Shown here piece after piece: positions 11,764-39,555 of a DNA stretch of 60,983 bases; the stretch's first letter is position 1, and the number at the start of each line of letters is the position of its first letter. A model generated the notes under the pieces. It saw only the letters and a program-made list of their open reading frames with translations. It was not told where the DNA came from and did not search any database. The position numbers were made by a program, and so were the translations under genes. The stretch lies in NCBI GenBank assembly GCA_015233115.1, contig JADFYJ010000016.1, forward strand, positions 499 to 61,481, in the 5' to 3' direction. This stretch comes from Candidatus Omnitrophota bacterium (GTDB lineage: Bacteria > Omnitrophota > Gorgyraeia > Zapsychrales > Zapsychraceae).

Positions 11764-11920
11764 AACCGCGTGCCCATACACAAGGTTTGTGTTTAAACCG
11801 AATCCCAGAGCGAGTTTCCTTGGCGGTTCGGTCGTCATCCCAACTTCATCATGCCATCGCTTCGCCAAGGTTGTTTGAGCGAAAGATTTGGTTTAAATGC
11901 AAACCGCCCTACCGCGCGCT
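11764..11920. repeat. Dispersed structured element, family A copy 1 (157 bp)
   Basis: aaccgcgtgcccatacacaaggtt...gagcgagtt[ccttggcg-37 nt-cgccaagg]ttgtttgagcgaa...aaaccgccctaccgcgcgct. Homologous to 19038-19160 and 39432-39555. Abuts the gcvPA stop codon. Confidence 0.92.
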
Positions 11921-13261
11921 TCATGATACCAAGACTGCTGCTAATGCTTTTGTATAGGCGTCAATTTCTGCTTTGGTTCTTTTTTCAGTTACGGCAATAA
12001 TCATGTAATTATCCATACCCGGATAATAACGGCTCAACGGGAAACCAGCGGCGAAACCTTTTTTGATCATGGCTTCGACCACAGTTGACGCGTCTTTGGG
12101 CAAACAGACGGTAAATTCATTGAATGTCGGAGAACTGCGTTTGACTTGTACGCCTTTGATTTTTTCCAGACATTGCTTCATATATTCGGCTTTATCCGCG
12201 TTAATTCTCGCCAGCTCTTTAAATCCTTCTTTCCCAACCAAAGACATAAAAATCACAGCCTGAAGCGCGCACAAGGCCACATTGGTGCAAATATTTGATG
12301 TGGCTTTTTCCCGGCGGATATGTTGTTCTCTCGCCTGCAAAGTATTCACGTAGCAGCGCCGTCCTTCTTTATCCACAGTCTGTCCGACAATACGTCCGGG
12401 CATCTTTCTGACAAATTCTTTACGTGTGGCCATAAATCCTAAATACGGCCCGCCAAAATTTAAAGCCAAACCTAAACTCTGCCCTTCACCCGTCACAATA
12501 TCCACACCCATTTCACCCGGGGTTTTTAAAAGACCCAAAGAAATCGGGTACACGCTTTCCACGACCAGCGCGCCAGCTTGATGCGCCAGGTCAACAATAT
12601 CAGAATAATCATCAATCGCGCCAAAAAAATTCGGGTTCTGCACCACGACAGCAGCGGTATTTTTATCCAATAAATTTTTGATAGCTGAACGGCTGGCCTG
12701 TCCATGCACCACCGGAGTTTCCACAAATTCAAAATGCAAATTCGTCGTATACGAGCGGATGATTTTTTTATAAATCGGGCTCACTCCGCCGTCAACCAGA
12801 ACCTTTTTACGGTTTGTGGTTCGGATGGCCATCATAACAGCTTCATACAATGCTGTCCCGCCTTCATACAAGGATGCGTTCGCCACTTCCATGTCGGTCA
12901 TCGCACAGATCGCGCTTTGATATTCGAATAAAGCTTGTAATGTCCCCTGCGAGCATTCCGGTTGGTACGGTGTATACGCGGTAAAGAATTCACCCCGGGA
13001 TGTTAATGCGGCAACGACCGCCGGGACATAATGATCATAAAATCCTCCACCGATAAAAGGAACGAGCTGACTAGAATTCTTGGCCGCTAAGGTTTTCAAA
13101 TATTCCAGGACTTCAAACTCAGACTTGCCCTGAGGCAAATTAAACGATTTTGGACGATGTTGCGTTTTAATATCCACAAAAAGATCATCGATGCTTTTGA
13201 CACCGATTTTTTGCAACATTTTCTGCACATCTTCCGCTGTATTGGAAATGTATGGATTCAA
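11921..13261 (-). CDS. gcvPA: Glycine dehydrogenase (decarboxylating) subunit 1
   Basis: TAYTPYQPECSQGTLQ, ANASLYEG, GGPYLG, LQAREQHIRREKATSNICTN. Confidence 0.97.
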   Translation of the reverse strand: MNPYISNTAEDVQKMLQKIGVKSIDDLFVDIKTQHRPKSFNLPQGKSEFEVLEYLKTLAAKNSSQLVPFIGGGFYDHYVPAVVAALTSRGEFFTAYTPYQPECSQGTLQALFEYQSAICAMTDMEVANASLYEGGTALYEAVMMAIRTTNRKKVLVDGGVSPIYKKIIRSYTTNLHFEFVETPVVHGQASRSAIKNLLDKNTAAVVVQNPNFFGAIDDYSDIVDLAHQAGALVVESVYPISLGLLKTPGEMGVDIVTGEGQSLGLALNFGGPYLGFMATRKEFVRKMPGRIVGQTVDKEGRRCYVNTLQAREQHIRREKATSNICTNVALCALQAVIFMSLVGKEGFKELARINADKAEYMKQCLEKIKGVQVKRSSPTFNEFTVCLPKDASTVVEAMIKKGFAAGFPLSRYYPGMDNYMIIAVTEKRTKAEIDAYTKALAAVLVS

Positions 13262-13272
13262 GGATAACTTTC

Positions 13273-13665
13273 TTATTCTTCTTTTTCTGCTTCCAGGAAA
13301 CTTTGGTATTCTTCGGCGTTCATGAGATTGCCGAGCTGATCCAAATCAGCGGCAACGATCTTCGCGATCCAGCCCCGTTCATACGGCGAACGGTTGATCA
13401 ATCCCGGATCAGAATCCAAATTGTGGTTCACATCCACGATGCGGCCGCCGAGCGGTGAAAAAATATCGCTGGCTGCTTTAACGGATTCGACTGAAGCGAG
13501 CTCTTCAAATTGTTCCACTTCAGTATCGACGGTAGGCAATTCCACAAACGTAATATCTCCCAATGATGACTGCGCGTAATCCGTGATTCCGACCATAGCC
13601 GATTCTTCTTCCATGCAAACCCATTCATGATCTTTCGTATAATAGTAATGTTCAATGATCTCCAT
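13273..13665 (-). CDS. gcvH: Glycine cleavage system H protein
   Basis: YTKDHEW, GITDYAQ..LGD, lipoyl-Lys motif VESVKAASDIFSP. Confidence 0.97.
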   Translation of the reverse strand: MEIIEHYYYTKDHEWVCMEEESAMVGITDYAQSSLGDITFVELPTVDTEVEQFEELASVESVKAASDIFSPLGGRIVDVNHNLDSDPGLINRSPYERGWIAKIVAADLDQLGNLMNAEEYQSFLEAEKEE

Positions 13666-13695
13666 TGTTTCCCTTTCTTCTTACCACCATATTCC

Positions 13696-14790
13696 CTATA
13701 ATTTTAATGAACCTTTTTTATAAAATATCCGACTTGAAACAATGGCCGGGTTTTTTGATTTTTCATCGCCGAAAAATATTGTCTGCCCTTGTTCCCCGTA
13801 ACCGGTATTCACAAATCCTAGTCCAATACCTTTGGTTAATGCCGGCGAAAAACTGCCGCTGGTCACCACACCGATTAAAGAACCATCCTCAGAAAATAAT
13901 TTTTGTTCTGCCCGGGGAGAACGACGATCCAAAGCCGTAAAACCAACCACCTTTTCCTTAATGCCACCCACTTGTTGCGCTAAAAGCGCGTGTTTCCCTA
14001 TAAAATCCTTATCAAAATTGACAAACCTTGTCAAGCTTGATTCTAACGGAGTTTTTTTCTCGTTTAATTCATGACCGTATAAACTGTAGCCCACCTCGAG
14101 CCTCAAGACATCGCGCGCTCCTAAACCCGCGGGTTTTACGCGGGAGTCTTTCAACAGCGCTTTCCAAAAATCCGCGGCTTTGGACCATGGCATATAAATT
14201 TCATAACCTAATTCGCCCGTATAACCGGTGCGGCTGATGAGGACTTCTTCCTCTAAAAAACGGAACATGCCGAAAGAATAAAATTCTAATTTTTCTATAC
14301 CGGGCACCATTTGTTTTAAAACATCCCTCGACAACGGGCCTTGAATATCAATTTTTCCGGTCTGGGAGGACAGGTCTTTAAACTGCGCTTTAGCTGACAA
14401 ATGCGCGCGGAAATGCGCCGCGTCTTTTTCTGTAGTCGAGGCATTCACGACGATAAACCATTCCTGCTGAGCTTTGCGGAAGACAATGAGGTCATCCATG
14501 ATCCCGCCGTGTTCGTTGAGCATGCAGCCATAACGGCAAGTCCCCACTGGCATATCAATTATTTTTTGCGTGACTAAATGATCTAATCCGCTTTCAACGG
14601 CATCGCCGGTTACCAAAAATTCGCCCATATGGCAAATATCAAAAATAGCCGCGCCTTGGCGGGCATAGTCATATTCTTTTAAAATGCCGTCATACTGCAC
14701 CGGCATATCCCATCCGCCAAAAGGAACCATTTTCGCTTTTAAGGCGAGGTGTTCTTCATAAATTGGAGTTCGTTTTAGATTTGTGTCCAT
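13696..14790 (-). CDS. gcvT: Glycine cleavage aminomethyltransferase
   Basis: [40 protein letters not shown]. Confidence 0.97.
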
Positions 14791-14815
14791 AAAATTAAAA
14801 TTTATAAAATGTTTA

Positions 14816-14920
14816 AAAAATGGTGTCAGACCTCGACTTGAAACAATTTGCTCGAAATAAAAAAATATAGCTGGTTAACTGCCGACCGCCCATTCTCAGT
14901 CGAGTTCAGACACCATTTTT
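14816..14920. repeat. Inverted-repeat element with 23-bp arms (21/23 match) and a 59-bp spacer
   Basis: aaaaatggtgtcagacctcgact (14816-14838) and agtcgagttcagacaccattttt (14898-14920). Confidence 0.8.
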
Positions 14921-14924
14921 AATA

Positions 14925-14998
14925 CGCGCCTAGAGGGAGTCGAACCCCCGACACCTGATTCCGAAGACCAGTGCTCTATCCAACTGAGCTATAGGCGC
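14925..14998 (-). tRNA. tRNA-Arg(UCG), CCA end not encoded
   Basis: Minus strand GCGCCTATAGCTCAGTTGGATAGAGCA-CTGGT CT TCG GA ATCAG-GTGTC-GGGGGTTCGACTCCCTC-TAGGCGC-G forms a full cloverleaf. Confidence 0.96.
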
Positions 14999-15011
14999 AT
15001 AAAACGTTTTT

Positions 15012-15039
15012 ATATTAAACCTATATTTTGAAATGTCAA
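15012..15039 (-). promoter_or_regulatory. Putative sigma70 promoter for tRNA-Arg
   Basis: TTGACA (15039-15034), 16-nt spacer, TAATAT (15017-15012), ending 13 nt upstream of the tRNA. Confidence 0.6.
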
Positions 15040-15052
15040 AAAATAGAATAAA

Positions 15053-15955
15053 TTATTTTTTAAATCTCTGCACGGCTGACTTCATGTCTTCTGCGGATGA
15101 TGCTGTTGTTTCTATTACTTTAATGACATGCTTATCAAAAAATTTTATGAGCGGGCTCAAATCTAAGTCTCCGCTAAAGGGTACTTGATGATCCCGTTTT
15201 CCGGTCATCCCGTGCAAATGAACTCCGATTAAATATTTGCCATACGCTTCCAAAAAATCCAAATGATCTGTAATCCCCAGCCGGCTGTTCATCTCGGCAT
15301 GTCCCACATCGTGCCAATAACCCAGGCCTTTACGTTCAAACAAATTCAGGAACATTCCGATTTCCTGAAAATCCGGTATTTCCGTCGGATAATAGCGGGT
15401 TTCTAAGCCAACCTTGATTTTTTTTCTGAACGCATAATCCATGACGTCCGTTAAGCTTTCTTCAAGCGCAGCAATATACGGCTCACGATTTTTCTTCCTA
15501 AAATTTAAAATTCGCTTTCGCTCCTGATAAAATTCCGCAGAATCTTTTTGGCCATCCATATAAAGTTCGAATAATTTTTTGGATCGGATATCGTCAGAAT
15601 CAATCATGCCCGCATGTAAGACAATCGCTTTGGCCTTAAATTCTACAGCCGTATCAATGGTGTAACAGGTCCAGCCAACTGCTTTTTTACGCTCCCATTC
15701 ATCCAGCGCAGATAACCGATAGTAATTGGAAAGATGCCGCGGTGAAGGATCATCATCAGGAGTGGGACAAAAGTTGTGAACACTCGAAATCGCCAGCCCC
15801 AATTTCGGTAAAGTTTTATGAATTTGCTGTAAATGCGGACGGGACAAATGATAGTCCAATTCAATAGCATTAAAACCTAACTCCTTGACCTGAATCAGCC
15901 AGTCATGAATATCAATATCCGGCGAATAATTCCAGCATGAAGAAAGTGATAACAT
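15053..15955 (-). CDS. Sugar-phosphate isomerase/epimerase-like TIM barrel protein
   Basis: GFNAIEL, SSVHNFCP, VLHAG, GLETR, WHDVGHA, GVHLHG..G.RDH. Confidence 0.8.
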   Translation of the reverse strand: MLSLSSCWNYSPDIDIHDWLIQVKELGFNAIELDYHLSRPHLQQIHKTLPKLGLAISSVHNFCPTPDDDPSPRHLSNYYRLSALDEWERKKAVGWTCYTIDTAVEFKAKAIVLHAGMIDSDDIRSKKLFELYMDGQKDSAEFYQERKRILNFRKKNREPYIAALEESLTDVMDYAFRKKIKVGLETRYYPTEIPDFQEIGMFLNLFERKGLGYWHDVGHAEMNSRLGITDHLDFLEAYGKYLIGVHLHGMTGKRDHQVPFSGDLDLSPLIKFFDKHVIKVIETTASSAEDMKSAVQRFKK

Positions 15956-15972
15956 GTTTTTTATCCCTGCGT

Positions 15973-16170
15973 TTATTTGTCTTTATCCAAATCTTCGACT
16001 ACTTTTTTTACTTCCAATTCCGCCTTTTCGATTTTCTCTTTACAGGTCTTAATCAATTTAACGGCTTCTTTCACATGAGCTGATAATTCATCCACATCAA
16101 CATTTTCATCTTCGATCCGTTCAATAATTTCGGTTAAACGGCTCATGGAATCTTTATACGTGTCTTTCAT
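15973..16170 (-). CDS. xseB: Exodeoxyribonuclease VII small subunit
   Basis: L.EII.RIE....DVDEL...VKEA..LIK.C..K...AE. AGGAG RBS; follows xseA. Confidence 0.9.
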   Translation of the reverse strand: MKDTYKDSMSRLTEIIERIEDENVDVDELSAHVKEAVKLIKTCKEKIEKAELEVKKVVEDLDKDK

Positions 16171-16184
16171 GTACAACTCCTTAT

Positions 16185-17489
16185 TTATTTTACCGTGCTC
16201 TCCACATTCCCATCGCCTAATTGCGTCATTATATCATCATCTTTTTTTACATGCTGAACACTTTTTAAGGCTCGACCAGTACTGTCGCGGGTGATGCTGA
16301 ATCCGCGTTTTAACGTGTTTTCGGGATGCAAAGCTCTGACTACTTTTTCAAAATTGATGAGGCGGTCATTTTCTTTTCGAAAGCGGATCTTTATTTCCCT
16401 CGTTAAATTTTCTTCGGTCCGCAGAACTTTTTGTTTTTCAGCCGACAATCCTTTTCCTGCCGCTTGCCGGACAGTTTCTTCCAATCGTGTAATAAAATCA
16501 TGATGCGCCTTAAAAAACATGTGGGTTTTCGTTTGAACAGACATGGCGTCATTCATCAATTGTTTCTTTTTCCGATCCAACAATGTCGTGCTTCCCCGCA
16601 AAACTGTATCCAAACCCTCATTCAGGCTATCCACAAATTCCTGCACCCGCCCTACAATAAACTGCGCGATGGCTGTCGGTGTTTTTGCAAACGTATGTGC
16701 GGCCAAGTCCGTAATGGTAATATTGATCTCGTGCCCTATGCCGCTTAAAACCGGAATAGTTGACGCCGCGATAGCCTCCGCGATCAGCTGACTGTCAAAG
16801 CAACTAAGATCCGCGATAGATCCGCCGCCGCGGGTAATCACAATCACGTCCAGCCCTTTGATCTCCTGCAATTCTTTAAGGCCGTAAACATTTTCCGCTT
16901 CAGCCCGTTTGCCTTGCATCAAGGTATTGCGCACATGAATTTTAAACCCGAATCCGCTTTTTTTAAGCTCTGAAATAAAATCATTGTACGCTGCCGAATC
17001 AGCTGAGGTGATCAACCCAATATTGAGCGGTACAGTCGGCAAAACCAAATGTTTATTCTTATCCAATACGCCTTTGGCTTTTAGTGCCGCGATTAACTTC
17101 TGTTTTTCCTGTGCCAGTTTACCGAGTGTATAAACCGGATCAATGCTTTCCACCACTAAACGCACTGCGCCGTGGGGAACATAATAATCCACTTTGCACG
17201 CGAATTTGACTTCAATATCATCTTTCAGTTCAAAGGCATTCTCGCTCTTTTTCAAAATTTGATTGATCTGTGCTTTTTTCCCCTCCCAAATCACCACGCC
17301 CACCCGCGCTTTTACATCTTTTGACCGTTCATCTTTTTCAACCAGTTCGAAAAAAATATGGCTCTTCCCTTTGTTCCGGTCAAAACCCTGAATTTCGCCG
17401 CAGACCCAGACAGTTTGCGGGAATCCAGCGTTGAGCACGTCTTTGATGAAACCGTTTAATTCTGAAATAGTAAAAAGGTTATCCGGCAC
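16185..17489 (-). CDS. xseA: Exodeoxyribonuclease VII large subunit
   Basis: VWVCGEI, IGLITS..SAAY.D, RGGGSIADL, SGIGHE, TPTA, HPENTLKRGFSI. Confidence 0.95.
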   Translation of the reverse strand: MPDNLFTISELNGFIKDVLNAGFPQTVWVCGEIQGFDRNKGKSHIFFELVEKDERSKDVKARVGVVIWEGKKAQINQILKKSENAFELKDDIEVKFACKVDYYVPHGAVRLVVESIDPVYTLGKLAQEKQKLIAALKAKGVLDKNKHLVLPTVPLNIGLITSADSAAYNDFISELKKSGFGFKIHVRNTLMQGKRAEAENVYGLKELQEIKGLDVIVITRGGGSIADLSCFDSQLIAEAIAASTIPVLSGIGHEINITITDLAAHTFAKTPTAIAQFIVGRVQEFVDSLNEGLDTVLRGSTTLLDRKKKQLMNDAMSVQTKTHMFFKAHHDFITRLEETVRQAAGKGLSAEKQKVLRTEENLTREIKIRFRKENDRLINFEKVVRALHPENTLKRGFSITRDSTGRALKSVQHVKKDDDIMTQLGDGNVESTVK

Positions 17490-18147
17490 TTTGTTCCTTT
17501 TTCAAATCATTCAATGAAATGTACATCTGCACTTGGCAAAGATAAATGTACGGCGCGGCTATGGCAGTCCAAACAGAAATGAGGCTGTCCGCGTATTTGA
17601 AATTTATATACTTCAAGACCAAAACCGGGACGGAAATAATTATGGCAGTTAAAAACAACATGGTTAACGTAGGCCAAAAAAATCCTTTAACTAATTTTGC
17701 GCTTTGTTTAAATGATTCTGAAAACCAAGCTTCTTCATGTTTAAGATCAAGAACCAGGATCGGCGCGAACCAAAAAATTCCCAGGAAAAAAAATCCTGGA
17801 ATAACCAGCAGTAACAGCCCGGAAAAAATCATTATCTGAAAAGCGAACACAGTCGCCAAATATGCTCCCCAGAGGGCAGACAACCCCTGTTGAAAATCTT
17901 CCGGTGTGTCTCCGTTGCGGATGACATGTAAACACCACAAATATAAAATCATCTGCGGCCAACTGGTAAATATGGTTCCAATAATGACGCCCCAAAACAT
18001 CATCATGGTTTCATTTTGAGCAATTTTCATCACAAAGGCATTGCCAATAGCCGCGGCTACGGCCAAAAAAAATCCCCACGGCAAAAGCCGCCGGTAATAT
18101 TTTTTATATAAAATAAAAGATTGTTTAAGAATCCAAGATATATTCAT
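17479..18147 (-). CDS. Multi-pass membrane protein of unknown function
   Basis: About 5-6 TM segments with GLLLLVIPG and S..LVKG.FW patterns; co-oriented and overlaps xseA. Confidence 0.7.
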   Translation of the reverse strand: MNISWILKQSFILYKKYYRRLLPWGFFLAVAAAIGNAFVMKIAQNETMMMFWGVIIGTIFTSWPQMILYLWCLHVIRNGDTPEDFQQGLSALWGAYLATVFAFQIMIFSGLLLLVIPGFFFLGIFWFAPILVLDLKHEEAWFSESFKQSAKLVKGFFWPTLTMLFLTAIIISVPVLVLKYINFKYADSLISVWTAIAAPYIYLCQVQMYISLNDLKKEQSAG

Positions 18148-18149
18148 AA

Positions 18150-19001
18150 TTAATCAAAAATAACTGTTTTATTACCATAACCTAAAATCTTTTTTTGTAA
18201 ATGCCAACGTACCGCTCTGCTCAAGACCATTTTTTCCAAATCTTCGCCCTTACGGATTAAGTCCTCTAATTCATCACGGTGACTGATGCGTACCGTATCC
18301 TGCTCAATAATGGGTCCTTGATCTAAATCAGCGGTGACATAATGGCTCGTTGCTCCAATGATCTTTACCCCTTTACGAAACGCTTGTTCATACGGTTTCT
18401 GCCCGACGAAAGCCGGCAAAAAAGAGTGATGAATATTAATGATACGGTTATGGTACGATTGCACAAATTGCGGGCTTAAAATTTGATGATACCTGGCCAG
18501 CACAATCGTATCTATTTTTTCCTGAGTTAAAATTTCCAATTGCCGGTGTTCTTGTTCTGTTTTATTTTCGGCAAAAACCGGAAAATGACAAAAACGGATC
18601 CCAAACTGTTTAGCTAATGGTTCAGCGTCCTGATGATTACTGACAATCAAAGGGATATCACAATCAAAATGCCCGGCCTGTCGGCGGTATAACAGATCAA
18701 ATAAACAATGCAGTTGACGGGAAACAAAAATAGCCATCCGGCTTTTCTGGTCAGAAAAATTAAGTGACCACTCCATATGGAAATTTTGCGCGATAGGGGC
18801 AAATATTTGTTTGATATCATCCCGAGGAATATCAAAACCAGTCAAGTCCCATTCAACCCGCATGAAAAATGTATTAGTCTGATCATCCGTATGCTGGTCA
18901 GCATGAAGAATATTCCCGTTATGCTGATAAATAAAATGAGTGATCGCGGCAGTAATCCCACGATGATCCGGGCAGGAAATCAGCAGAACTGCTTTAGGCA
19001 T
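18150..19001 (-). CDS. purU: Formyltetrahydrofolate deformylase
   Basis: ACT domain SCPD..GI, LARYHQILS, INIHHSFLPAF.G..PY, LDQGPIIEQD. Start moved to ATG 19001 (AGGAG RBS). Confidence 0.96.
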   Translation of the reverse strand: MPKAVLLISCPDHRGITAAITHFIYQHNGNILHADQHTDDQTNTFFMRVEWDLTGFDIPRDDIKQIFAPIAQNFHMEWSLNFSDQKSRMAIFVSRQLHCLFDLLYRRQAGHFDCDIPLIVSNHQDAEPLAKQFGIRFCHFPVFAENKTEQEHRQLEILTQEKIDTIVLARYHQILSPQFVQSYHNRIINIHHSFLPAFVGQKPYEQAFRKGVKIIGATSHYVTADLDQGPIIEQDTVRISHRDELEDLIRKGEDLEKMVLSRAVRWHLQKKILGYGNKTVIFD

Positions 19002-19037
19002 AGACAACTCCTTAAAATAAAATATAATCAAATTTAT

Positions 19038-19160
19038 AACCGCGTGCCCATGCACAAGGTTAGCATTGAAACCGAATCCCAGAGCGAGTTCAGCGACGCC
19101 GAGTCGCTGCTGTTTGAGCGAAGGATTTGGTTTAAATGCAAACCGCCCAACCGCGCGCTT
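19038..19160. repeat. Dispersed structured element, family A copy 2 (123 bp)
   Basis: Same scaffold as copy 1, with the apical hairpin replaced by cagcgac-gccga-gtcgctg. Lies 4 nt from the helicase stop codon. Confidence 0.92.
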
Positions 19161-19164
19161 TAAA

Positions 19165-20505
19165 CTATTCGATATTTGTTATTTTTATGATTTCTTCTAC
19201 AAATCGTAGCACATGGGCATCTATCAGTATATCTTTTTTTGCAATAGGGCGCTTTAAAATAATCCCTTCAAAATGCGTGCATCGGCTTAACGCGACATAA
19301 ATCTGTCCGCACGCGAACGCGCCCCATCCAACGTCAACGATCACTTTTGAAAAAGTTTTTCCCTGGCTTTTGTGTATGGTCACAGCCCAGGCCAGACGCA
19401 GGGGATATTGTTTGAACAGGCCCACACTTTCCGATTGCAAACGGTCTAATTCTTCATCGTAATAAAAACGATACATGTCCCATTGATGCGGATTTACATC
19501 AACGATCCGGCCGTCTTCCAATTCGACCACAACTTTGTCTTCTTCATCCGCAATTCTGATCACCCGGCCCACAGTTCCGTTCACCCACCGGCTTTCCGGA
19601 TCATTATTCAGCATCATCACTTGCGCGCCGACCTTTAATTCAAGGTCTTCTTTCGTGGGATAACTTTTCGGATCAAACTTGCCGGAAACTTCCGCGGAAA
19701 ACCGGCGTTTAGGGCCGATGAGCTTAGAGAGCTCTTTTTCATTCACTTCGTCGGCCAGCCGGTTAGTCGTAGTTAAATATATAAAAAAATCATTATCCGG
19801 CGGGACAAAATCACGGGCCACCCGGCTGTTGATCAGGTTCATATCCTCTCCACTCAATTTCCCTTCGCGGATATGTGCCAAAAGCTGAATAAAATCATCA
19901 TCTTTTTGACGGTAAATTTTGTCCAGTTCAATAAAATTAATCTTTTTTTCCTTGATCAAATCCTGGAACACTTTTGAATCAAAAAAATACGCGCTTTTGT
20001 AGGACGATTTAAAAATGGATTCCTCAGGGGAACTCACCACCGGCGGAAGCTGTAACAGGTCGCCGATAAAAACCATTTGCACTCCACCAAACGGCAGATC
20101 AGGGTTTTTGCCAAAAGCGCGCAAGAAATTATCCACGCAGTCCAAAAGATCTGCTCTCACCATGGATATTTCATCAATGACAATAGTTTCTAAATTCTTG
20201 TATAATTCTTTTTGCGCTTTGCGCAGGCGGATATCATAAACACTCTCGGGAGTGGTGTCTGGCCTCAGGCAAAAAAACGAATGGATGGTCTGCCCTTGAA
20301 TATTGACCGCGGCTACTCCGGTGGGAGCTAACACCACGGCATTTTTCAGAGTGTGTTCTCGGAAATATTTCAGCAGAGTGGATTTTCCCGTTCCGGCTTT
20401 CCCGGTAATGAGGGCATTTTGGCTGGTATTTTCCAGCAGATCAATAGTAAAAACAAACCGCTCGTTAAACTCGAGCGGTTCGCGAAAAGTCGATTTTAAA
20501 ATCAT
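19165..20505 (-). CDS. Pif1-family (SF1B) DNA helicase
   Basis: GKAGTGKS, APTGVAA, DEISMV, GDLLQLPPV, YRQ, QYPLRLAWAVTIHKSQG, GQIYVALSR. Confidence 0.9.
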   Translation of the reverse strand: MILKSTFREPLEFNERFVFTIDLLENTSQNALITGKAGTGKSTLLKYFREHTLKNAVVLAPTGVAAVNIQGQTIHSFFCLRPDTTPESVYDIRLRKAQKELYKNLETIVIDEISMVRADLLDCVDNFLRAFGKNPDLPFGGVQMVFIGDLLQLPPVVSSPEESIFKSSYKSAYFFDSKVFQDLIKEKKINFIELDKIYRQKDDDFIQLLAHIREGKLSGEDMNLINSRVARDFVPPDNDFFIYLTTTNRLADEVNEKELSKLIGPKRRFSAEVSGKFDPKSYPTKEDLELKVGAQVMMLNNDPESRWVNGTVGRVIRIADEEDKVVVELEDGRIVDVNPHQWDMYRFYYDEELDRLQSESVGLFKQYPLRLAWAVTIHKSQGKTFSKVIVDVGWGAFACGQIYVALSRCTHFEGIILKRPIAKKDILIDAHVLRFVEEIIKITNIE

Positions 20506-29219: not shown

Positions 29220-29225
29220 ACATCT

Positions 29226-30802: not shown

Positions 30803-30830
30803 CCTTCTCCTTTTATTTAGAGGAAAATCT

Positions 30831-31526: not shown

Positions 31527-31528
31527 AT

Positions 31529-31790
31529 GTTGTTTGGGCTCGCTACGGGGATACGTCTGTGCTCAAACAGGCCTGGCGGCAAACTGCGCGCAGCCATATC
31601 CCCTCCGTTCGCACAAACAACGTTTACTTTAATCTCTATCACGTTTACACCCCTGTACTTTTATCCATCGTATCTCATTACGACGCTACCGTGTGGCACA
31701 TCCTGAGCAAAGTCGAAGGACTCAAACAGGCCTGGCGGCGAACTGCGCGCGCTCATATCCCCTCCGTTCATTCAAACAACGTTAATTTTA
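31529..31790. repeat. Structured element family B, tandemly duplicated at a 159-bp offset
   Basis: 31562-31631 and 31721-31790 match at about 61/70 nt. The first copy is closed by gttgtttg/caaacaac and ggggata/tatcccc stems. Confidence 0.85.
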
Positions 31791-31819
31791 CCTTTATCCC
31801 CTTTACATTTAACGCTTTT

Positions 31820-31880
31820 CATCCTTCGTCCCTCGTCCATCGTTTCACCACATACTACATACCACGCACTACATACTGCT
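31820..31880. repeat. Stacked 7-mer arrays (CRTCCHT x3, then CATACYA x4) overlapping the zwf stop codon
   Basis: catcctt cgtccct cgtccat ... catacta catacca cgcacta catactg. Confidence 0.8.
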
Positions 31881-33383: not shown

Positions 33384-33386
33384 AGT

Positions 33387-34289: not shown

Positions 34290-34305
34290 ACTGATCTCCT
34301 CTTTC

Positions 34306-35379
34306 TCACACACTAAATCTAAAATTCACCACGTCTCCGTCTTGCATGACGTATTCTTTTCCTTCGAGGGTGATAAGTTTGTTGTCGACAATGGCTTTGT
34401 AGGAACCTAAGCGTTCGAAATCTTTGTATTTATAAATTTCCGCGCGGATGAAACCGCGTTCTATGTCAGAATGGATTTTGCCTGCGGCTTGTGGCGCTTT
34501 AGTGCCTTCGGAAATGATCCATGAACGGGTTTCTTTGTCCCCGGCAGTTAAGAAACAAATTTGTTTTAACAATTTTTGCCCTTCACGCGCCAGACGGTGT
34601 AAACCTGGTTCAGTAATTCCGGCAGTTTGGTAAAATTCTTCCCGTTCTTCAGGCGGAAGCTGAATAATTTCGGCTTCGATTTTAGTGCATAAAACCACGA
34701 TGCCGGCATTTTCCCTGGCCGCGCGTTCTTCTAACGCTTTCACTAAATCAGGACGGGAATTATTTTCGTCAACATTTGCCACATACATCATAGGTTTCGC
34801 GGTCAAGAGTTGATATTCCCGAATCATGTCCATGTCCACTTTTTGCCTACGGACAGGGATTCCCTTACCCAATTCAGCGACTACCATATCTAATATTTCA
34901 CATTTTTTCTGAGCTTCGCGGTCGCCGGCTTTAGCTGTCTTTCTAACTCGTTCGATGCTTTTTTCAATCTGTTGCAAATCTGCCAATAATAATTCAGTTT
35001 CAATGGTTTCCGCGGCGGAAATCGGATCCAGCTCTGCCATCACATTCACCACATTGTCATCTTCAAAACAACGGACCACATGAGCCACAGCTTCCACGGA
35101 GCGGATATTTCCCAAAAATTTATTTCCCAAACCCTCACCCTTACTCGCGCCTTTAACCAAACCCGCGATGTCCACAAAACGGATTCCGGATGGCGTAATT
35201 TTCTGCGTATTAAATTCTTTTCCTAAATGCTCCAGACGCGGATCAGGAATCGGCACCACGCCGACATTCGGCTCGATCGTCGTAAACGGAAAATTTTCCG
35301 CGGCAACGCCTGCCCCGGTCAAAGCATTAAACAAAGAAGACTTCCCGACATTTGGTAAACCTACAATACCTATTTCCAT
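34306..35379 (-). CDS. ychF: Ribosome-binding ATPase YchF
   Basis: GIVGLPNVGKS, NFPFTTIEPN, DIAGLVKGASKGEGLGNKFL, EGKEYVMQDGD. Confidence 0.97.
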   Translation of the reverse strand: MEIGIVGLPNVGKSSLFNALTGAGVAAENFPFTTIEPNVGVVPIPDPRLEHLGKEFNTQKITPSGIRFVDIAGLVKGASKGEGLGNKFLGNIRSVEAVAHVVRCFEDDNVVNVMAELDPISAAETIETELLLADLQQIEKSIERVRKTAKAGDREAQKKCEILDMVVAELGKGIPVRRQKVDMDMIREYQLLTAKPMMYVANVDENNSRPDLVKALEERAARENAGIVVLCTKIEAEIIQLPPEEREEFYQTAGITEPGLHRLAREGQKLLKQICFLTAGDKETRSWIISEGTKAPQAAGKIHSDIERGFIRAEIYKYKDFERLGSYKAIVDNKLITLEGKEYVMQDGDVVNFRFSV

Positions 35380-36674
35380 TAAATTCCCTTCGGTTCTTGT
35401 TCCACTTCTTTTAAATTTCCCAAATCATTTAAAATCCGTATTAATCTTGATTTAATTTCTGATGTATCAACAGCTACCCCTAAGATACGTTGATTAAACG
35501 CGTGCTGGCGGTCTGCCCAATCCGTCACAATATCCGACGCCGTACCCTGCGGACGATATACAGTACCAAAGAATGACCAAGCACTGGCCATCATTTCATC
35601 TAAAGCCTGGTTTTGAATATTATCTTGAAGCGCCAAATCAGCGATCAATTGTTCTGAAATAATTTTATTCTGAATGTGTTGTTTAAGCAGTTTCCCCGTT
35701 TCTCCCATTAATTTTTCATCAACAGCGTCAGCCATCAGATCTGTGCCATCCCAAAACACTTTACTGTTTTGTAAAAACCGTTCCTGGTTCAGGCGTAAAT
35801 TACTCCAATAATCTTCTTCCTGAGTCAGCCAGCCATTCAACCGGTTCAACACCCCGCCTGGGTGTTTGGCCTTGATCAAATTTATATCATTATTCACCTG
35901 TTCACTCATGCTCAAAAGCGCTTGTTCTGTGGCCTTGGTATTATTTTTCAATAATTCAAACTCATGATTCAAGGTTTCCCACATCTCGCCCCAAACTTTG
36001 ACAATGGCGGATTTCTTGATGAGTATATCCAAGTCATACGTCCGGATATTCTGCTCAAAATTTTCAAACACTTTTTTGCTGCAGCTGATCTGATCTGTGC
36101 AGTCAGCGCTGTCCAATAATTTTTTATTCAGGATCACTTGATCCAGTTGGCCAGTCAAGACAGACAAACGCCCGTCTAATTTCGGGATATCAATCTTTAA
36201 CGGTTCAAATAAACCATTAACCTGCTTTTTAAAATCCGTATATTTCAAAGAAATATCCGCAGCCGAGTTTTCCGACAACAACAATAAAAATTGACTGCTG
36301 GCAGATTTATAATCCAACAAAGCATTTTCCAAAATTTTCTGGTCTTTATCCAACTTGACCAACAAAGACTTGCTTTCCTGCAAACTTGAGCCAAAAATTT
36401 CTCCCAGCTTTTTAAAATCCTCACCCCGTTTTTGGTCAACGACTTCTGTTTTCGACACAAAATTACGGTACGTCCCGTCAACATCGATGTCCGCGGCATT
36501 TTTGCTGGCAATCGGCACCGCAGGTATCTGCCCTTTTAGATTATTCGCTAAACGGACCATCTGATCATTAAGCTGTTTTGTGTTTTCAGGATTCAACGCC
36601 CGGCTAATAAAATAAACCCCGACGACCAAGACTGCAAAAATAAACAGATATTGTACTTTGTCATCTTTTTTCAT
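35379..36674 (-). CDS. Hypothetical membrane-anchored helical protein
   Basis: 431 aa, N-terminal TM. Its stop overlaps the ychF start (TAATG). Confidence 0.7.
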   Translation of the reverse strand: MKKDDKVQYLFIFAVLVVGVYFISRALNPENTKQLNDQMVRLANNLKGQIPAVPIASKNAADIDVDGTYRNFVSKTEVVDQKRGEDFKKLGEIFGSSLQESKSLLVKLDKDQKILENALLDYKSASSQFLLLLSENSAADISLKYTDFKKQVNGLFEPLKIDIPKLDGRLSVLTGQLDQVILNKKLLDSADCTDQISCSKKVFENFEQNIRTYDLDILIKKSAIVKVWGEMWETLNHEFELLKNNTKATEQALLSMSEQVNNDINLIKAKHPGGVLNRLNGWLTQEEDYWSNLRLNQERFLQNSKVFWDGTDLMADAVDEKLMGETGKLLKQHIQNKIISEQLIADLALQDNIQNQALDEMMASAWSFFGTVYRPQGTASDIVTDWADRQHAFNQRILGVAVDTSEIKSRLIRILNDLGNLKEVEQEPKGI

Positions 36675-36703
36675 TTCAGTCTTCTCTCACCCATCGCTTT
36701 TTC

Positions 36704-36748
36704 CTTTACCACCTTTACCACCTTTACCACCTCTACCACGTTTATCAC
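36704..36748. repeat. Solo 9-mer array (CTTTACCAC x5)
   Basis: ctttaccac x3, ctctaccac, gtttatcac; 6 nt after the trpB2 stop codon. Confidence 0.85.
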
Positions 36749-36754
36749 TTTTTC

Positions 36755-38146
36755 TTACCATTTCCCCGTTTTATGAATTTTGGCTTTTGGTAATTTTTTT
36801 AATACTTCCATCGATGCTTTTAATTCTTCATCTGGCAAAGTATAACCTTCCAGTTGGCCAGTCAGATATTTATCATATCCCATTAAATCTAAAAGTCCAT
36901 GGCCGCTGTATGAGAACAAAATAACCTTTTCTTTTCCTTCTTCGCGCGCCTTGATTGCTTCATCAATCGTCGCGGCGATCGCGTGGCTGGTTTCCGGCGC
37001 GCAGATCATGCCCTCGGTTTTCGCCCATATCATCGCGGATTTATAGGCATTAAGCTGGTCACACGCGCGCGGCGCGAGTAAACCTTCCACAACAGCCTGA
37101 CTGACCAAAGGCGCCATACCGTGATACCGCAATCCTCCGGCGTGAACCGGAGCTGGAACAAATTGATGGCCCAGCGTATTCATGGGTAGTAACGGTGTCA
37201 TCTCCGCTGTATCGCCAAAATCATAAGCAAATTCTCCCCGGGTCATTTTCGGGCAAGAGGCAGATTCCACAGGAATAATTTCGATCTTTTTCCCGTGAAT
37301 TTTATCCGCCACAAATGGAAAAGATATTCCCGCGAAATTACTTCCGCCGCCCGCGCATCCGATCACCACATCCGGCCCTTTTTCTCCGGCAATTTCTAAT
37401 TGCTTCTTGGCTTCCAAACCAATGATCGTCTGATGCAAAAGCACATGATTTAAAACACTGCCCAAAGCGTAACGGGTCGTGCCGCTTGGGTCAGATACGG
37501 CTTCTTCAATCGCTTCGCTGATCGCGATTCCCAAACTCCCCGGAGTATTGGGGTCTTTTTTCAAAATTTCCCGTCCGGCATGCGTATATTCACTCGGGCT
37601 GGACACGCAATGCCCTCCCCAGATCTGCATCAATATTTTACGCATAGGTTTCTGATCAAAACTAACGCGCACCATGTACACTTTACATTCCAGACCAATC
37701 ATATTACACGCCAAAGCTAAAGCCGTTCCCCACTGACCCGCGCCTGTTTCTGTCACCAATCGCTTGATCCCGAATTGTTTATTATACCAAGCCTGAGGAA
37801 TAGCGGAATTGGTCTTGTGGCTGCCTGCGGGACTGATGCTTTCATCTTTATAATAAATCCTCGCCGGAGTTTTTAAATAAGCTTCCAAACCAGTTGCGCG
37901 GCGCAAGGGTACCGGCCGCCAATGGCATAACAAATCCAACACCTCTTCAGGAATATCAATCCAGCGTTCCCTGCTCATTTCCTGGTCGATTAAATTCATC
38001 GGAAACACCGGAGCTAATTTTTCCGGCGTAATCGGTTTCCCATCCTTACCCAACGGCGGCAGCATCGGCGTAGGCAAATCCGCGGCTAAATTGTACCATT
38101 GACGCGGCATATCTTTGGGGCTGAGATGGATGTTGATTTCTTTCAT
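36755..38146 (-). CDS. trpB2: TrpB2-type tryptophan synthase beta chain
   Basis: WYNLAADLP, SPAGSHKTN, TETGAGQWG, GCAGGGSNFAG, HAGGLRYHG, APETSHA, SGHG. Confidence 0.9.
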   Translation of the reverse strand: MKEINIHLSPKDMPRQWYNLAADLPTPMLPPLGKDGKPITPEKLAPVFPMNLIDQEMSRERWIDIPEEVLDLLCHWRPVPLRRATGLEAYLKTPARIYYKDESISPAGSHKTNSAIPQAWYNKQFGIKRLVTETGAGQWGTALALACNMIGLECKVYMVRVSFDQKPMRKILMQIWGGHCVSSPSEYTHAGREILKKDPNTPGSLGIAISEAIEEAVSDPSGTTRYALGSVLNHVLLHQTIIGLEAKKQLEIAGEKGPDVVIGCAGGGSNFAGISFPFVADKIHGKKIEIIPVESASCPKMTRGEFAYDFGDTAEMTPLLPMNTLGHQFVPAPVHAGGLRYHGMAPLVSQAVVEGLLAPRACDQLNAYKSAMIWAKTEGMICAPETSHAIAATIDEAIKAREEGKEKVILFSYSGHGLLDLMGYDKYLTGQLEGYTLPDEELKASMEVLKKLPKAKIHKTGKW

Positions 38147-38159
38147 GCGAATTCCTCCA

Positions 38160-39374
38160 TTATTTTTTTTTCCATAAATAAACCTTATCCTGCGGATTGG
38201 CGATAAAGGGCAATTTCACGCCGATATCGGTTCCGCGCACGGCTTTATCAATATACACATTATCTTTTTGAATTTCATCAGCCACCACATACTCGGCAGC
38301 AGTTGATTTTCCGATAATAATTAAAGTATCGCCTTTAGACAAATCACCGGCCTGCAAACGGATCTGGGCTACGCTGATCTGCTTAAAAAATTTCATGACA
38401 TAGCCGATATAAATTTTTTCATAAATATGTTCAAACGTCCGGCTGTTTTCATCCTGAGGCTGGCCAAAATAAAAACCGGTTGAAAGCCCGCGGTTATAAA
38501 CAGTCTTCAATTGCTCTTTAAGTTCCAGTTTTAAAGGCGCATCCAAATTGCCTTCATAAAACGCGTCAATAGCCCGACGGTAAGCGCTCACCACCACCCG
38601 CGCGTATTCTGGAGAACGCATCCGGCCTTCAATTTTAAAAGAATCAATTCCCGCCTTGATCATCTCATCGATAAAATCCATGGTACACAAATCTTTGGGA
38701 CTCAACACATAATCCTGGCCCAGGACAAATTCCGCTTGCTGGTTGACATCTTTAATAAAATATTCCCGCCGGCAAGGCTGAATACACTGACCCTGATTCG
38801 CGGACTTGCCATGCGCATATTGGGACAGAAAACACCGGCCGCTAATGCTCACGCACATAGCGCCATGAATAAAGGTTTCGATCTCACACGGAATATTTTC
38901 TCTGCGTTTCAGCTGAACCATACGGCTGATATCATCAAGGGTGCACTCTCTCGCCAACACCACCCGGCTGACGCCCAATCCCTGATAAAACTTCAAGGCT
39001 TCAAAATTCGCCACGCTGGCCTGGGTCGACAAATGAATATCTAACCCTTTTTCCTTAGCCATTTTCAAAGCCGCCATATCCCACAAAATCACCGCGTCAA
39101 CGCCGACCTTCTTCGCTTCCGTCAAAATATTTTCAGCCTTGGCTAAATCATCCTCCATTAAAATTGTATTGAGCGTTAAATAACCTTTCCGTCCTGACTG
39201 GCGCAATAGGTCCATGACCTTTCCTAATTCCAACATATCAAAATTAGAGGCCAAATGACGCATGTTAATACTTTTCACGCCAAAATAAACACTATCCGCG
39301 CCGCAATCAACGGCCGCTTTTAAAGAAGGCCAATCGCCGGCCGGAGCTAATAATTCAGGAGTTCGATTTATCAT
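38160..39374 (-). CDS. Peptidase U32-family protein (probable Fe-S RNA hydroxylase, TrhP-like)
   Basis: PELLAPAG, GADSVYFG, HLSTQ, HGAMCVSISGRC, C.QPCR, KIEGR. Confidence 0.88.
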   Translation of the reverse strand: MINRTPELLAPAGDWPSLKAAVDCGADSVYFGVKSINMRHLASNFDMLELGKVMDLLRQSGRKGYLTLNTILMEDDLAKAENILTEAKKVGVDAVILWDMAALKMAKEKGLDIHLSTQASVANFEALKFYQGLGVSRVVLARECTLDDISRMVQLKRRENIPCEIETFIHGAMCVSISGRCFLSQYAHGKSANQGQCIQPCRREYFIKDVNQQAEFVLGQDYVLSPKDLCTMDFIDEMIKAGIDSFKIEGRMRSPEYARVVVSAYRRAIDAFYEGNLDAPLKLELKEQLKTVYNRGLSTGFYFGQPQDENSRTFEHIYEKIYIGYVMKFFKQISVAQIRLQAGDLSKGDTLIIIGKSTAAEYVVADEIQKDNVYIDKAVRGTDIGVKLPFIANPQDKVYLWKKK

Positions 39375-39431
39375 AAATTTTTATACGTTAAAATTCTCAA
39401 ATAACAAAACCAAATCTTTTTTGTACATACT

Positions 39432-39555
39432 AACCGCGTGCCCATACACAAGGTTAGCGTTTAAACTGAATCCCCGAGCGAGTTTCCTTGGGCAACGCCC
39501 AAGGTTGTTTGAGCGAAGGATTCGGTTTAAATGCCAACCGCCCAACCGCGCGCTT
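39432..39555. repeat. Dispersed structured element, family A copy 3 (124 bp)
   Basis: Same scaffold, with apical hairpin ccttgggc-aac-gcccaagg. Lies 2 nt from the upstream stop codon. Confidence 0.92.

Follow-up and report, generated by a model that had tools for sequence, protein, structure and literature searches.

A hairpin with a short conserved centre recurs in many unrelated bacteria and looks like an undescribed kind of small mobile DNA

The same hairpin, built around a short conserved centre, occurs in many unrelated bacteria and looks like an undescribed kind of small mobile DNA hairpin. It came to notice as three copies in a 60,983-nt stretch of a Candidatus Omnitrophota genome (contig JADFYJ010000016.1, positions 499 to 61,481; the window). 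The reading preferred here, to which a probability of about one half is given, is that the hairpin is mobile but non-autonomous, that it travels as a single strand and that its core is a putative recognition site for an enzyme. With about even confidence, the copies resembling those in the window (family A) may be regarded as a recently amplified branch, 40 copies strong, of a family of non-autonomous mobile hairpins that is both old and widespread. The initial annotation had offered a mobile RNA or single-stranded DNA element or a multicopy non-coding RNA scaffold; the multicopy structured element and its behaviour as inserted DNA, seen in empty sites of a same-genus genome and in nesting, withstood analysis and the scaffold did not.

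Copies in the window

The three copies have a single orientation, as first described, and align with a mean column identity of 79% (Table 1). Each lies 0-4 nt from a stop codon (TGA, TAG and TGA), as had been noted, and the genes concerned are on the opposite strand and run toward the 3' end of the element. The 104-aa gene beside copy 3 had no NCBIfam family match. The fold originally predicted, with a basal GCGUGC/GCGCGC stem, a 22-bp stem, GAGCGA opposite GAGCGA and an apical stem, was recovered at -59.6, -50.9 and -57.5 kcal/mol for copies 1, 2 and 3 on the strand first read (z -5.55, -5.36 and -6.92), and none of 200 shuffles of each copy matched the native fold. The ends, AACCGCGTGC and AACCGCGCGC, are indeed direct repeats, because CGCG is self-complementary.

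Table 1. Positions in the window of the three copies, their parts and the adjoining genes
Feature	Position	Strand	Remarks
Copy 1	11764..11920	+	157 nt, long-tip variant
Copy 1 basal stem	11768-11773 with 11914-11919	+	
Copy 1 arm	11784-11805 with 11884-11905	+	
Copy 1 core 5' half	11808-11814	+	GAGCGAG
Copy 1 apical region	11818-11870	+	34-nt insert in loop
Copy 1 core 3' half	11871-11883	+	TTGTTTGAGCGAA
Copy 2	19038..19160	+	123 nt
Copy 2 basal stem	19042-19047 with 19153-19158	+	
Copy 2 arm	19058-19079 with 19123-19144	+	
Copy 2 core 5' half	19082-19090	+	GAGCGAGTT
Copy 2 apical hairpin	19091-19109	+	CAGCGAC type
Copy 2 core 3' half	19110-19122	+	CTGTTTGAGCGAA
Copy 3	39432..39555	+	124 nt
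Copy 3 basal stem	39436-39441 with 39548-39553	+	
Copy 3 arm	39452-39473 with 39518-39539	+	
Copy 3 core 5' half	39476-39482	+	GAGCGAG
Copy 3 apical hairpin	39486-39504	+	CCTTGGGC type
Copy 3 core 3' half	39505-39517	+	TTGTTTGAGCGAA
gcvPA (glycine dehydrogenase subunit 1)	11921..13261	-	TGA stop 11921-11923, 0-1 nt from copy 1 3' end
gcvPB	10198-11661	-	downstream of gcvPA
RecD2-like helicase gene	19165..20505	-	TAG stop 19165-19167, 4 nt from copy 2
purU	likely start ATG near 19002	-	downstream of RecD2-like helicase gene
104-aa gene	39558..39872	-	TGA stop 39558-39560, 2 nt from copy 3
U32-family gene	38160-39374	-	downstream of 104-aa gene
Promoter-like site TAGACA-16-TATAAT	19001..19028	+	11/12 matches, aimed into copy 2

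Copy number and structure

The expectation of many more copies genome-wide proved correct, with 57 nhmmer matches in the 2.39-Mb source assembly (91% complete), 40 of them full-length and 17 partial, divergent or broken. Scaffold identity among the full copies averaged 88% (range 74-98%) and their tips were exchangeable, as had been proposed: 20 were of the CAGCTCC type, 14 of the short CCTTGG type (12 identical, 2 variants), two of the CAGCGAC type and four were long (55-67 nt) and carried tip inserts. In the divergent copies the core GAGCGAG-UU-(hairpin)-YUGUUUGAGCGAA is invariant and the 20-22 bp arms differ yet stay complementary. Fourteen of the 17 divergent or broken matches are singletons with an intact core, near-perfect despite widely differing arms. 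The conserved unit is the ~45-nt core rather than the 123-nt scaffold. Such cores in singletons are not predicted by plain selfish decay and, together with the divergent arms, suggest either selection on each copy, i.e. a host function, or a homogenising process.

Each element is one long imperfect hairpin in which arms of ~20-22 bp are free in sequence and required to pair, a purine-rich core is invariant (CCGAGCGAG-UU on the 5' side, YUGUYUGAGCGAA on the 3' side) and the tip hairpin is free in both sequence and length. The facing GAGCGA blocks could pair as G.A/A.G - G-C/C-G - G.A/A.G. Covariation, proposed as a check on the family, was strong in each of three sets, drawn from the source genome, from 11 of 40 related genomes and from 42 of 80 metagenome contigs. 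An alignment of 37 of the 54 intact-core copies of the source genome had 93.0% of cells paired versus 78.8% in shuffles and 22 of 30 pairs varied on both sides, which none of 500 shuffles attained; sliding the partners left 23-49% of cells paired. For 47 distinct metagenome rows, in an alignment fitted to the model, the corresponding figures were 91.8% versus 47.5%, with 38-43% for slid partners, and in the outer helix of this fitted alignment 94.7% of cells were paired and all 22 pairs varied on both sides. Selection acts on structure and leaves the sequence free.

Distribution and insertion

Of 40 further genomes from the order, 11 had matches to motif R1, nine among 24 genomes from other genera of the same family and two from two other families; the motif was absent from the remaining 29, the same-genus genome included. 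Metagenome searches gave 49 matches in 42 of 80 loci, the G+C of the matched stretch ranging from 0.39 to 0.76, and the core-bearing contigs included marine and human-gut ones by contig name, with many other samples represented. Copy number across genomes varied from 0 to 54.

Comparison of filled with empty sites, as originally recommended, was made for ten copies against the same-genus genome (77% complete), which had no element match. At four orthologous sites that genome has 0-7 nt between the genes versus 133-190 nt in the source genome and is essentially empty, with the limit that a paralogous place for one of the four has a 251-nt spacer; five sites have an unrelated spacer and one copy lies within a 2.1-kb stretch that is missing. 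In the same-genus genome the RecD2-like helicase gene and purU flanking copy 2 are 3 nt apart, and the 104-aa and U32-family genes flanking copy 3 overlap by ATGA. Among relatives in other genera, 11 of 18 matches are nested, each lying in the loop at the tip of a surrounding family member that points the other way. That the element behaves as inserted DNA is supported by these observations.

No target site duplication (TSD) was detected, in agreement with the initial annotation. The longest word shared by the 12-nt flanks of the 40 full copies had a mean of 3.58, versus 3.59 +/- 0.14 for re-paired flanks, and 1140 of 2000 shuffles reached the observed value; a DDE-type MITE was rejected on this TSD result. 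After GCGCGC the first base is T in 33 of the 40 copies, the second T in 27, the third T in 20 and the fourth A in 19. Most copies begin 0-30 nt past a stop codon and 37 of the 40 lie between co-directional genes.

The 3'-side gene is convergent in 54 of 57 matches in the source genome, where the folding strand is thus antisense to the upstream gene that converges on it, and in 27 of the 34 metagenome cases with a callable ORF; gene ends there are faced by 27/34 callable 3' sides and 21/37 callable 5' sides. The folding strand was the C-rich strand in 57/57 matches and, since it carries the lagging-strand sequence, lies on the leading-strand template. Because 1337 of the 1431 long ORFs of this genome (93%) are on the G-rich strand, replication and transcription are inseparable as the cause of the orientation.

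Known families and candidate movers

At the gathering threshold the whole window, searched against Rfam 15 as had been advised, yielded only a tRNA at 14925-14998, and at E<=10 eight source-genome copies produced three matches only, to miRNA and snoRNA models, at 10.7-21.7 bits where gathering thresholds are 50-90.

No mover enzyme was found among the Y1, IS110, TnpB and integron integrase families checked in the 91%-complete source genome. It has six Y1_Tnp (RAYT-like) places, and one of its RAYT-like genes is over the NCBIfam cut-off. A RAYT or HUH gene flanked by copies, which the initial annotation had thought worth seeking, was not among them; none of the six Y1 genes adjoins an nhmmer match. 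One of them has no flanking inverted repeat, and around the others lie a CACCATTTTTT array or inverted repeats of their own that are unrelated to the element. In the relatives, judged by coordinates, no listed Y1 gene was beside any R1 match, and Y1 presence (12/12 motif-positive and 22/29 motif-negative genomes) does not track the motif. A GTAG or CGTC head is absent from the family-A consensus, and GTAG occurs within 16 nt upstream of 11/49 metagenome matches (six from one subfamily) and 1/18 matches in relatives. On these tests a REP/RAYT system was rejected.

IS110 and TnpB had no match in the source genome. The best score for the integron integrase model TIGR02249 was 89.9 bits, where the cut-off is 265, its sub-threshold matches being Xer-like, and inspection alone of the element ends revealed no consistent RYYYAAC/GTTRRRY box pair; integron attC was rejected on both counts. 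The arms are inverted repeats that differ between copies. A long version with core halves 150-5000 nt apart had no candidate in the source genome. The 56 flanking ORFs fell across 60 Pfam families; among the 25 families listed the commonest had three members and none was a transposase, and there is no fixed neighbour gene in the contexts examined. An intrinsic terminator was also rejected: of nine terminator-like sites in 11600-19400 none coincides with copy 1 or copy 2, and what comes after the hairpin on the gene-sense strand is only GGTT(T/A). Family A is followed by TTTATT just on the antisense strand, and divergent copies lack this sequence.

Likeness to described elements

Like REP/REPIN-RAYT systems, the elements are short intergenic hairpin repeats in tens of copies without TSD, often in transcribed spacers after genes; REPs too are thought to be single-strand movers and RAYT-like genes are present in the genome. 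The pattern of conservation is the reverse of that in REPINs, whose arms are conserved around a free middle; here an invariant middle lies between free arms. With Correia (nemis), ERIC and RUP/BOX-type MITEs the family shares a length of 100-160 bp, long hairpins, co-transcription with neighbours and subfamilies with internal indels. In those MITEs the terminal inverted repeats are conserved and there is a TSD, of TA or another sequence; the present family has no TSD and its termini vary around a conserved centre.

Integron attC sites resemble the element in lying directly past a stop codon, in a folded recombining strand antisense to the gene and in a conserved structure with varied sequence and a variable terminal structure. 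The folded attC strand of chromosomal integrons is likewise on the leading-strand template. The flanking genes here are syntenic housekeeping genes, not cassettes. The palindrome-associated elements (PATEs) derived from IS200/IS605 also lack a TSD, are recognised as hairpins in single-stranded DNA, have an orientation tied to replication and prefer a short flank (TTTA/TAAA here, in 19-33 of 40 copies by position). They differ in having two subterminal hairpins rather than one long one, and in the source genome TnpB had no match and the Y1 genes are of RAYT type with their own repeats. In IS200/IS605 the active strand is on the lagging-strand template, opposite to the 57/57 placement found here; this position of the GAGCGA folding strand, on the leading-strand template, counts against the mobile-hairpin reading.

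By published description, the closest points of comparison include QMITE2 of Coxiella burnetii, reported as a very stable hairpin of 150-190 bp in about 50-78 copies, mostly in 3' UTRs where it overlaps the last 1-10 bp of ORFs, with full-size forms and small ones, a tip that diverges more than the stem and occurrence outside the species (PMC5896051). Size, size variants, stability, copy number, 3'-end location, tip divergence and occurrence beyond one species are alike on that description; the GTAG REP, TIRs, 7-11 nt direct repeats and IS1111 target that it gives for QMITE2 (Wachter et al. 2018, PMC5896051) were not found for the GAGCGA element.

Interpretation

For the mobile hairpin we infer the following course. 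A folded single strand, most likely DNA and the GAGCGA-bearing strand, would be the form both moved and recognised, and the core would be the place where an enzyme provided in trans binds or cleaves. Insertion would proceed without target duplication into A/T-rich DNA just beyond stop codons or into the loops of pre-existing hairpins, in an orientation fixed with respect to replication and transcription.

Mobility could instead be only the origin of what is now a cis-acting part of mRNA, co-transcribed as the reverse complement in 3' UTRs or between cistrons, where it might protect against 3' exonucleases, be processed by RNase III or RNase E, or slow terminating ribosomes. Such roles have been reported for REP, ERIC and Correia elements, and the 22-bp arm is close in length to a typical RNase III substrate. 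Placement just past stop codons between co-directional genes, the gene ends faced in metagenome loci and the intact core of old singletons all agree with it, and copies 2 and 3 read as reverse complements retain folds of -46.7 and -51.8 kcal/mol. The z of these folds is only -2.80 and -3.61, versus the -5.4 and -6.9 of the other strand, and wobble pairs favour that other strand: the outer helix of the metagenome alignment has 94 G-U cells versus 7 A-C cells, G-U exceeding A-C in 37 of 47 sequences and A-C exceeding G-U in none, and these would be mismatches on the mRNA strand. There the core would be a large pyrimidine loop, UUCGCUCAAACA opposite AACUCGCUCGG, with no evident pairing, and nested pairs place one element of each orientation on either strand. 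A cis-acting mRNA role is judged unlikely.

The same G-U asymmetry, with the covariation, would suit a family of small structured RNAs made from the folding strand in convergence with the upstream gene and acting as antisense or through protein binding at the GA-rich core, a purine-rich internal loop that may resemble a protein-binding RNA motif. Family A also ends in a GC stem followed by TTTATT, and a near-consensus promoter is aimed into copy 2; this site is probably incidental, since it is absent as a family feature. Sigma-70-like sites directed into the folding strand accompany only 2 of 40 full copies versus 3.9% of AT-rich control windows, and that strand is antisense to the neighbouring genes, which together disfavour the multicopy RNA scaffold. 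The T tract is missing in relatives as well as divergent copies, and none of the nine terminator-like sites in 11600-19400 coincides with a copy. About 54 RNA genes would all run counter to a genome in which 93% of the genes lie on one strand, and nesting and presence/absence differences better fit DNA insertion. Small RNA genes are a distinctly improbable explanation.

Judged equally improbable is a site in host DNA that works when extruded as a hairpin or cruciform, is spread by recombination rather than transposition and is bound by a universal protein of replication, repair or recombination, e.g. as a priming or restart signal or an Xer-like recombinase site. No accessory gene accompanies the element in the contexts examined, matches from 39% to 76% G+C would fit a partner common to all bacteria, orientation with skew is strict and old copies keep their cores; however, a patchy distribution that leaves out even a same-genus genome is odd for a host function, as is a copy number of 0 to 54, and the nesting and 40-copy burst look selfish.

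A wider proposal is advanced tentatively, with more doubt than belief. Across many bacterial groups GAGCGA-core hairpins may be substrates of a new class for the recombination or transposition of single strands, recognised by shape and by a symmetric G.A-paired core and inserted past stop codons with the folding strand antisense, like attC bottom strands. The enzyme would be universal or of a kind not yet tied to mobile DNA, and old copies would be kept through host use.

Small hairpin repeats such as REPs, REPINs and MITEs shape bacterial operons, and each described family is, to our knowledge, tied to one lineage and usually to one transposase. Breadth sets the present family apart, its 45-nt core being invariant in matches from 39% to 76% G+C. 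So does its inverted conservation, with a fixed middle and with arms and tip that need only pair, and a third distinction is that no companion gene was seen in the contexts examined. A covariance model lets annotators mask or label a repeat that is currently unannotated, and the tip is a natural site that tolerates inserts. Were the mover identified, a new mode of DNA hairpin movement would be defined, and if the mover proved to be a RAYT acting on a repeat that does not flank its gene, the known range of RAYTs would be widened. Should hosts have kept old copies, a common 3'-end element would be added to bacterial gene structure.

The repeat family

The repeat centres on a core, GAGCGAG-UU-[tip hairpin]-YUGUUUGAGCGAA, flanked by complementary arms of 20-22 bp, and the strand carrying GAGCGA is referred to here as the folding strand. 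Direct comparison and alignment of the three copies in the window confirmed the initial annotation, which had described them as similar and co-oriented, and each forms, as claimed, a single long hairpin with a stability well above that of shuffled sequence. On the strand originally read, copies 1, 2 and 3 have an MFE of -59.6, -50.9 and -57.5 kcal/mol (z -5.55, -5.36 and -6.92), with 0 of 200 shuffles as stable in each case; for copies 2 and 3 the opposite strand folds more weakly (z -2.80 and -3.61). In the 61-kb window nearly all long ORFs are on the minus strand, and each copy therefore points its 3' end at the stop codon of a convergent gene, at the reported distance of 0-4 nt. The 104-aa gene beside copy 3 matched no NCBIfam family. 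The sole Rfam match in the window was a tRNA gene. Copy 1 and three further family-A copies are preceded on the 5' side by a second repeat of ~40 nt, ggagctcccggcactactcggacattacgtcctcggtcgc; flank pieces that include it gave 9-19 short BLAST matches in the source genome assembly (G000).

Many more copies had been anticipated genome-wide, and an iterated nhmmer profile indeed found 57 matches in G000 (2.39 Mb, 37 contigs, 41% G+C), 40 of them full length (family A) and 17 partial. Most full copies are 118-126 nt long, with four long-tip copies of 156-171 nt, and scaffold identity among the 40 is 88% (range 74-98%). Their tips form four groups, in agreement with the exchangeable apical hairpin originally proposed: 14 of a short CCTTGG type, 20 CAGCTCC, 2 CAGCGAC and 4 long, the last reaching 55-67 nt through an insert within the tip loop. 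Fourteen of the partial matches are divergent copies in which GAGCGAG-TT-[hairpin]-YTGTTTGAGCGAA is nearly letter-perfect and the arms, still complementary, are genome-unique except for two similar pairs and one lone arm. The other three are broken copies (L058, L060, L061), of which two are split by a 20-nt palindrome, CCTGCCTGCCGGCAGGCAGG, sitting between GAGCG and AGTT. This palindrome, with only 2 exact copies in G000, also breaks an outer core in another genus (L069) and may be a tiny mobile palindrome in its own right. In intergenic regions many family-A copies have (AGTAACMG)n arrays, with a unit of 8 nt, beside them, and flank pieces with these gave 88-242 short BLAST matches. Since many copies adjoin other repeat families, the G000 spacers are mosaics. 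Homology searches aimed at placing the organism taxonomically gave one distant locus, from a Flavobacteriales MAG (39% identity), and neither PDB matches nor a protein atlas yielded a placement; LpxC is present, and IcmL was matched neither here nor in the control genomes.

Locations of the copies and of associated features (window coordinates for the first five rows; C, contig; L, fetched locus; G001, same-genus genome)
Feature	Location	Neighbours or content	G001 counterpart
Copy 1	11764-11920 (+)	3' side: gcvPA stop, 0-1 nt off; other side: gcvPB, same strand as gcvPA	
Copy 2	19038-19160 (+)	3' side: RecD2-like helicase stop, 4 nt off; other side: purU, helicase's strand	near-empty, TAG-tgt-ATG
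Copy 3	39432-39555 (+)	3' side: 104-aa gene stop, 2 nt off; other side: U32-family gene, same strand	near-empty, ATGA overlap
Second repeat	about 11700-11745	ggagctcccggcactactcggacattacgtcctcggtcgc	
tRNA gene	14925-14998 (-)		
Copy	G000 C11:42621-42743		near-empty, 7 nt (G001:C41 copy)
Divergent singleton	G000 C11:43665-43747		near-empty, about 5 nt
Copy	G000 C31:104484-104654		
Copies split by CCTGCCTGCCGGCAGGCAGG	G000 C32:37947-37994 and C33:131533-131614		
(AGTAACMG)n examples	G000 flanks of C33:53884-54127; C4:11891-11950; C8:14993-15052		
Group II intron RT, 5'-cut	G000 C37:1-2891 (L002), contig end	then RAYT gene	
Xer-like tyrosine recombinase gene	G000 C33:92510-93289 (-)	directly beside divergent copy C33:93455-93543 (+)	
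Hairpin in gcvPA-gcvPB spacer	L082 2890-2960 (G001)		
Tandem array	L106 1000-1511 (metagenome contig)	10-nt unit GAGCGAGTYT	

Covariation and the folding strand

The structure was set by hand as an outer helix of 22 pairs and a tip helix of 8 pairs. The G000 alignment comprised 37 of the 54 intact-core copies, leaving out 6 near-identical family-A copies, 4 long-tip copies and 7 arm-indel copies misplaced by MAFFT; the broken copies L058, L060 and L061 are absent from every alignment. Covariation, named in the initial annotation as the check on the fold, is evident: 93.0% of pairing cells pair against 78.8% in shuffles, and both sides have changed in 22 of 30 pairs, which 0 of 500 shuffles attain. 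When partners were slid by 1-3 columns as a control only 23-49% of cells paired.

A covariance model derived from this alignment was used to fit a second one, of 47 distinct metagenome sequences, in which 91.8% of pairing cells pair (47.5% in shuffles). In its outer helix the figure is 94.7%, all 22 pairs have changed on both sides, and there are 94 G-U cells against 7 A-C cells; G-U exceeds A-C in 37 of the 47 sequences and the reverse occurs in none. The strand under selection to fold is therefore the one that carries GAGCGA. From G000 alone this inference is weak, being based on two or three inherited family-A wobble positions, and eight divergent G000 copies hold 11 G-U against 8 A-C.

Orientation

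The gene on the 3' side is convergent for 40/40 full and 14/17 partial matches in G000, and for 37 of the 40 full copies the genes on both sides run in the same direction. The folding strand is also the locally C-rich strand in 57/57 matches. Strand asymmetry is very strong in this genome (local GC skew 0.12-0.23) and 1337 of 1431 long ORFs (>=150 aa) are on the G-rich strand, so replication and transcription are inseparable there as the basis of the rule. At metagenome loci the 3'-side ORF was convergent in 27 of 34 callable cases and the element lay on the C-rich strand 33 times, on the G-rich strand 9 times and in flat sequence 7 times, with a counter-case on one gut-type contig, where an AraC-type gene has a copy on either side, both in sense orientation. 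The orientation rule is therefore general, not absolute.

Evidence for insertion

Synteny between G000 and G001 holds around ten copies. At four of these sites G001 is nearly empty between the genes and G000 has 133-190 additional bases; at the paralogous place of one of them (C11:42621-42743), on G001:C12, there is a 251-nt spacer instead. The copy on C31 lies inside a 2.1-kb stretch absent from G001, and the remaining five sites have an unrelated G001 spacer of 50-280 nt. The G001 gcvPA-gcvPB spacer contains a different hairpin, GAATTC-GAGCGGG-[hairpin]-GAGCGAG-AATTC, in gene-sense orientation, which may be a distant relative missed by the covariance model. Nesting was found in other genera, where 11 of 18 matches occupy the tip loop of an oppositely oriented outer element belonging to the same family.

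Flank comparison found no target duplication around the family copies, as the initial annotation had noted for the window. The bases after the terminal GCGCGC are T, T, T and A in 33, 27, 20 and 19 of the 40 copies, and the base preceding AACCG is A or T without exception. The idea that a core-only unit drops into pre-existing hairpins was rejected, as the arms of divergent copies are mostly genome-unique and G001 is without both arms and core at the one divergent-copy site compared; a loose regular expression for core-less hairpins returned 616 matches, all noise. A longer autonomous version in G000 was likewise rejected, with 0 split cores.

Distribution beyond G000

The covariance model matched 11 of 40 other genomes of the order, with 1-12 copies each: 9 of 24 other-genus genomes of the same family and two genomes from two other families. 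Searching the same-genus G001 (77% complete) gave no match. The core in the positive relatives reads AUCAC-CGAGCGAG-UU..tip..CUGUYUGAGCGAAUGAU. In public metagenome contigs the exact core pattern was found in at least 118 stretches. By our own arithmetic chance matches occur at ~1e-10 per base, so some of these stretches may be chance matches or tandem arrays; the metagenome count was restricted to the 42 of 80 fetched loci confirmed by the model, which held 49 matches. One such array, on the metagenome contig L106, makes the core word a microsatellite and is interspersed with units GAACGAnACTGTT..TTGTTTGAGCGAG. The model-confirmed matches range in G+C from 0.39 to 0.76, their neighbours are ordinary metabolic and housekeeping genes, and contig names point to marine and human-gut samples, among others. 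Viral contigs gave 0 matches to the exact core pattern, leaving a phage link unsupported.

Relation to known elements and candidate enzymes

The closest described elements are REPINs, QMITE2 of Coxiella, integron attC sites, IS200/IS605 PATEs and Correia/ERIC-type MITEs, QMITE2 being compared by its description in PMC5896051. In its mode of action the element would most resemble REPINs or attC sites, but the membership features tested for REP/RAYT, attC and MITEs that make target duplications are absent. A search of the open literature found no paper describing the GAGCGA core, core strings matching primer-like or unrelated text only.

REP/RAYT membership was rejected. The HUH or RAYT gene flanked by copies that the initial annotation had proposed to look for was found neither among the six Y1 genes of G000, whose surroundings hold their own repeats or none and lack the element, nor among those of relatives, none of which adjoins a match to the model. 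Five of the six are closest to REP-associated tyrosine transposases, with one above the curated cut-off. A GTAG head is not a family feature, and Y1 does not track the motif, being present in 12/12 positive and 22/29 negative genomes. The RAYT gene on C37 (REP_Tyr_transpos, 86.8 bits, cut-off 80) is accompanied by an array of (TCTGA)CACCATTTTTT repeats, and an array motif, GACACCATTTTT, also adjoins some family-A copies. An attC identity was rejected with no integron integrase scoring above cut-off in G000, which also gave no IS110 and no TnpB match. The adjacency of a Xer-like gene to a divergent copy was seen only once and could be a coincidence.

Promoter-driven sRNA genes, and with them the multicopy ncRNA scaffold suggested initially, find no support: promoter-like sites directed into the folding strand occur at 2/40 copies, against 3.9% of control windows, and thus the one ahead of copy 2, although a good match, is probably incidental. 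A MITE making target duplications was rejected on the missing duplications, a terminator because copies 1 and 2 are not called as such, and a known RNA family because Rfam has no match to the element, as the initial annotation had supposed.

Mechanism

The core is invariant and asymmetric, the helices are free in sequence but paired, the tip is hypervariable and wobble pairs fall on one strand. Such a pattern is expected where a protein recognises a nucleic acid folded as a single strand. The GAGCGA block occurs as a direct repeat, once on each of the opposing arms, and facing each other antiparallel the two blocks would give G.A, A.G, G-C, C-G, G.A and A.G, a two-fold symmetric non-canonical duplex of a kind that would suit a dimer. 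The oligonucleotide d(ATGAGCGAAT) forms a classic tandem G.A duplex with sheared G.A pairs, of just the kind that the facing blocks would give.

The burst, nesting, empty sites and patchy distribution suggest that the element is selfish and non-autonomous. Because target duplication is missing and a strand rule holds, movement may proceed through single strands, by an HUH-type or hairpin-recombinase-type mechanism rather than by a DDE transposase. We give a mobile hairpin served by an enzyme in trans a probability of roughly one half; an mRNA element, an sRNA family and a host DNA site share the remaining weight, and these readings are not mutually exclusive. Two observations fit the mobile hairpin poorly. 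The sequence of the folding strand is that of the lagging strand, contrary to IS608-type elements, which follow the opposite strand rule. Old singleton copies, moreover, retain a perfect core, pointing to preservation by hosts or by some process of homogenisation.
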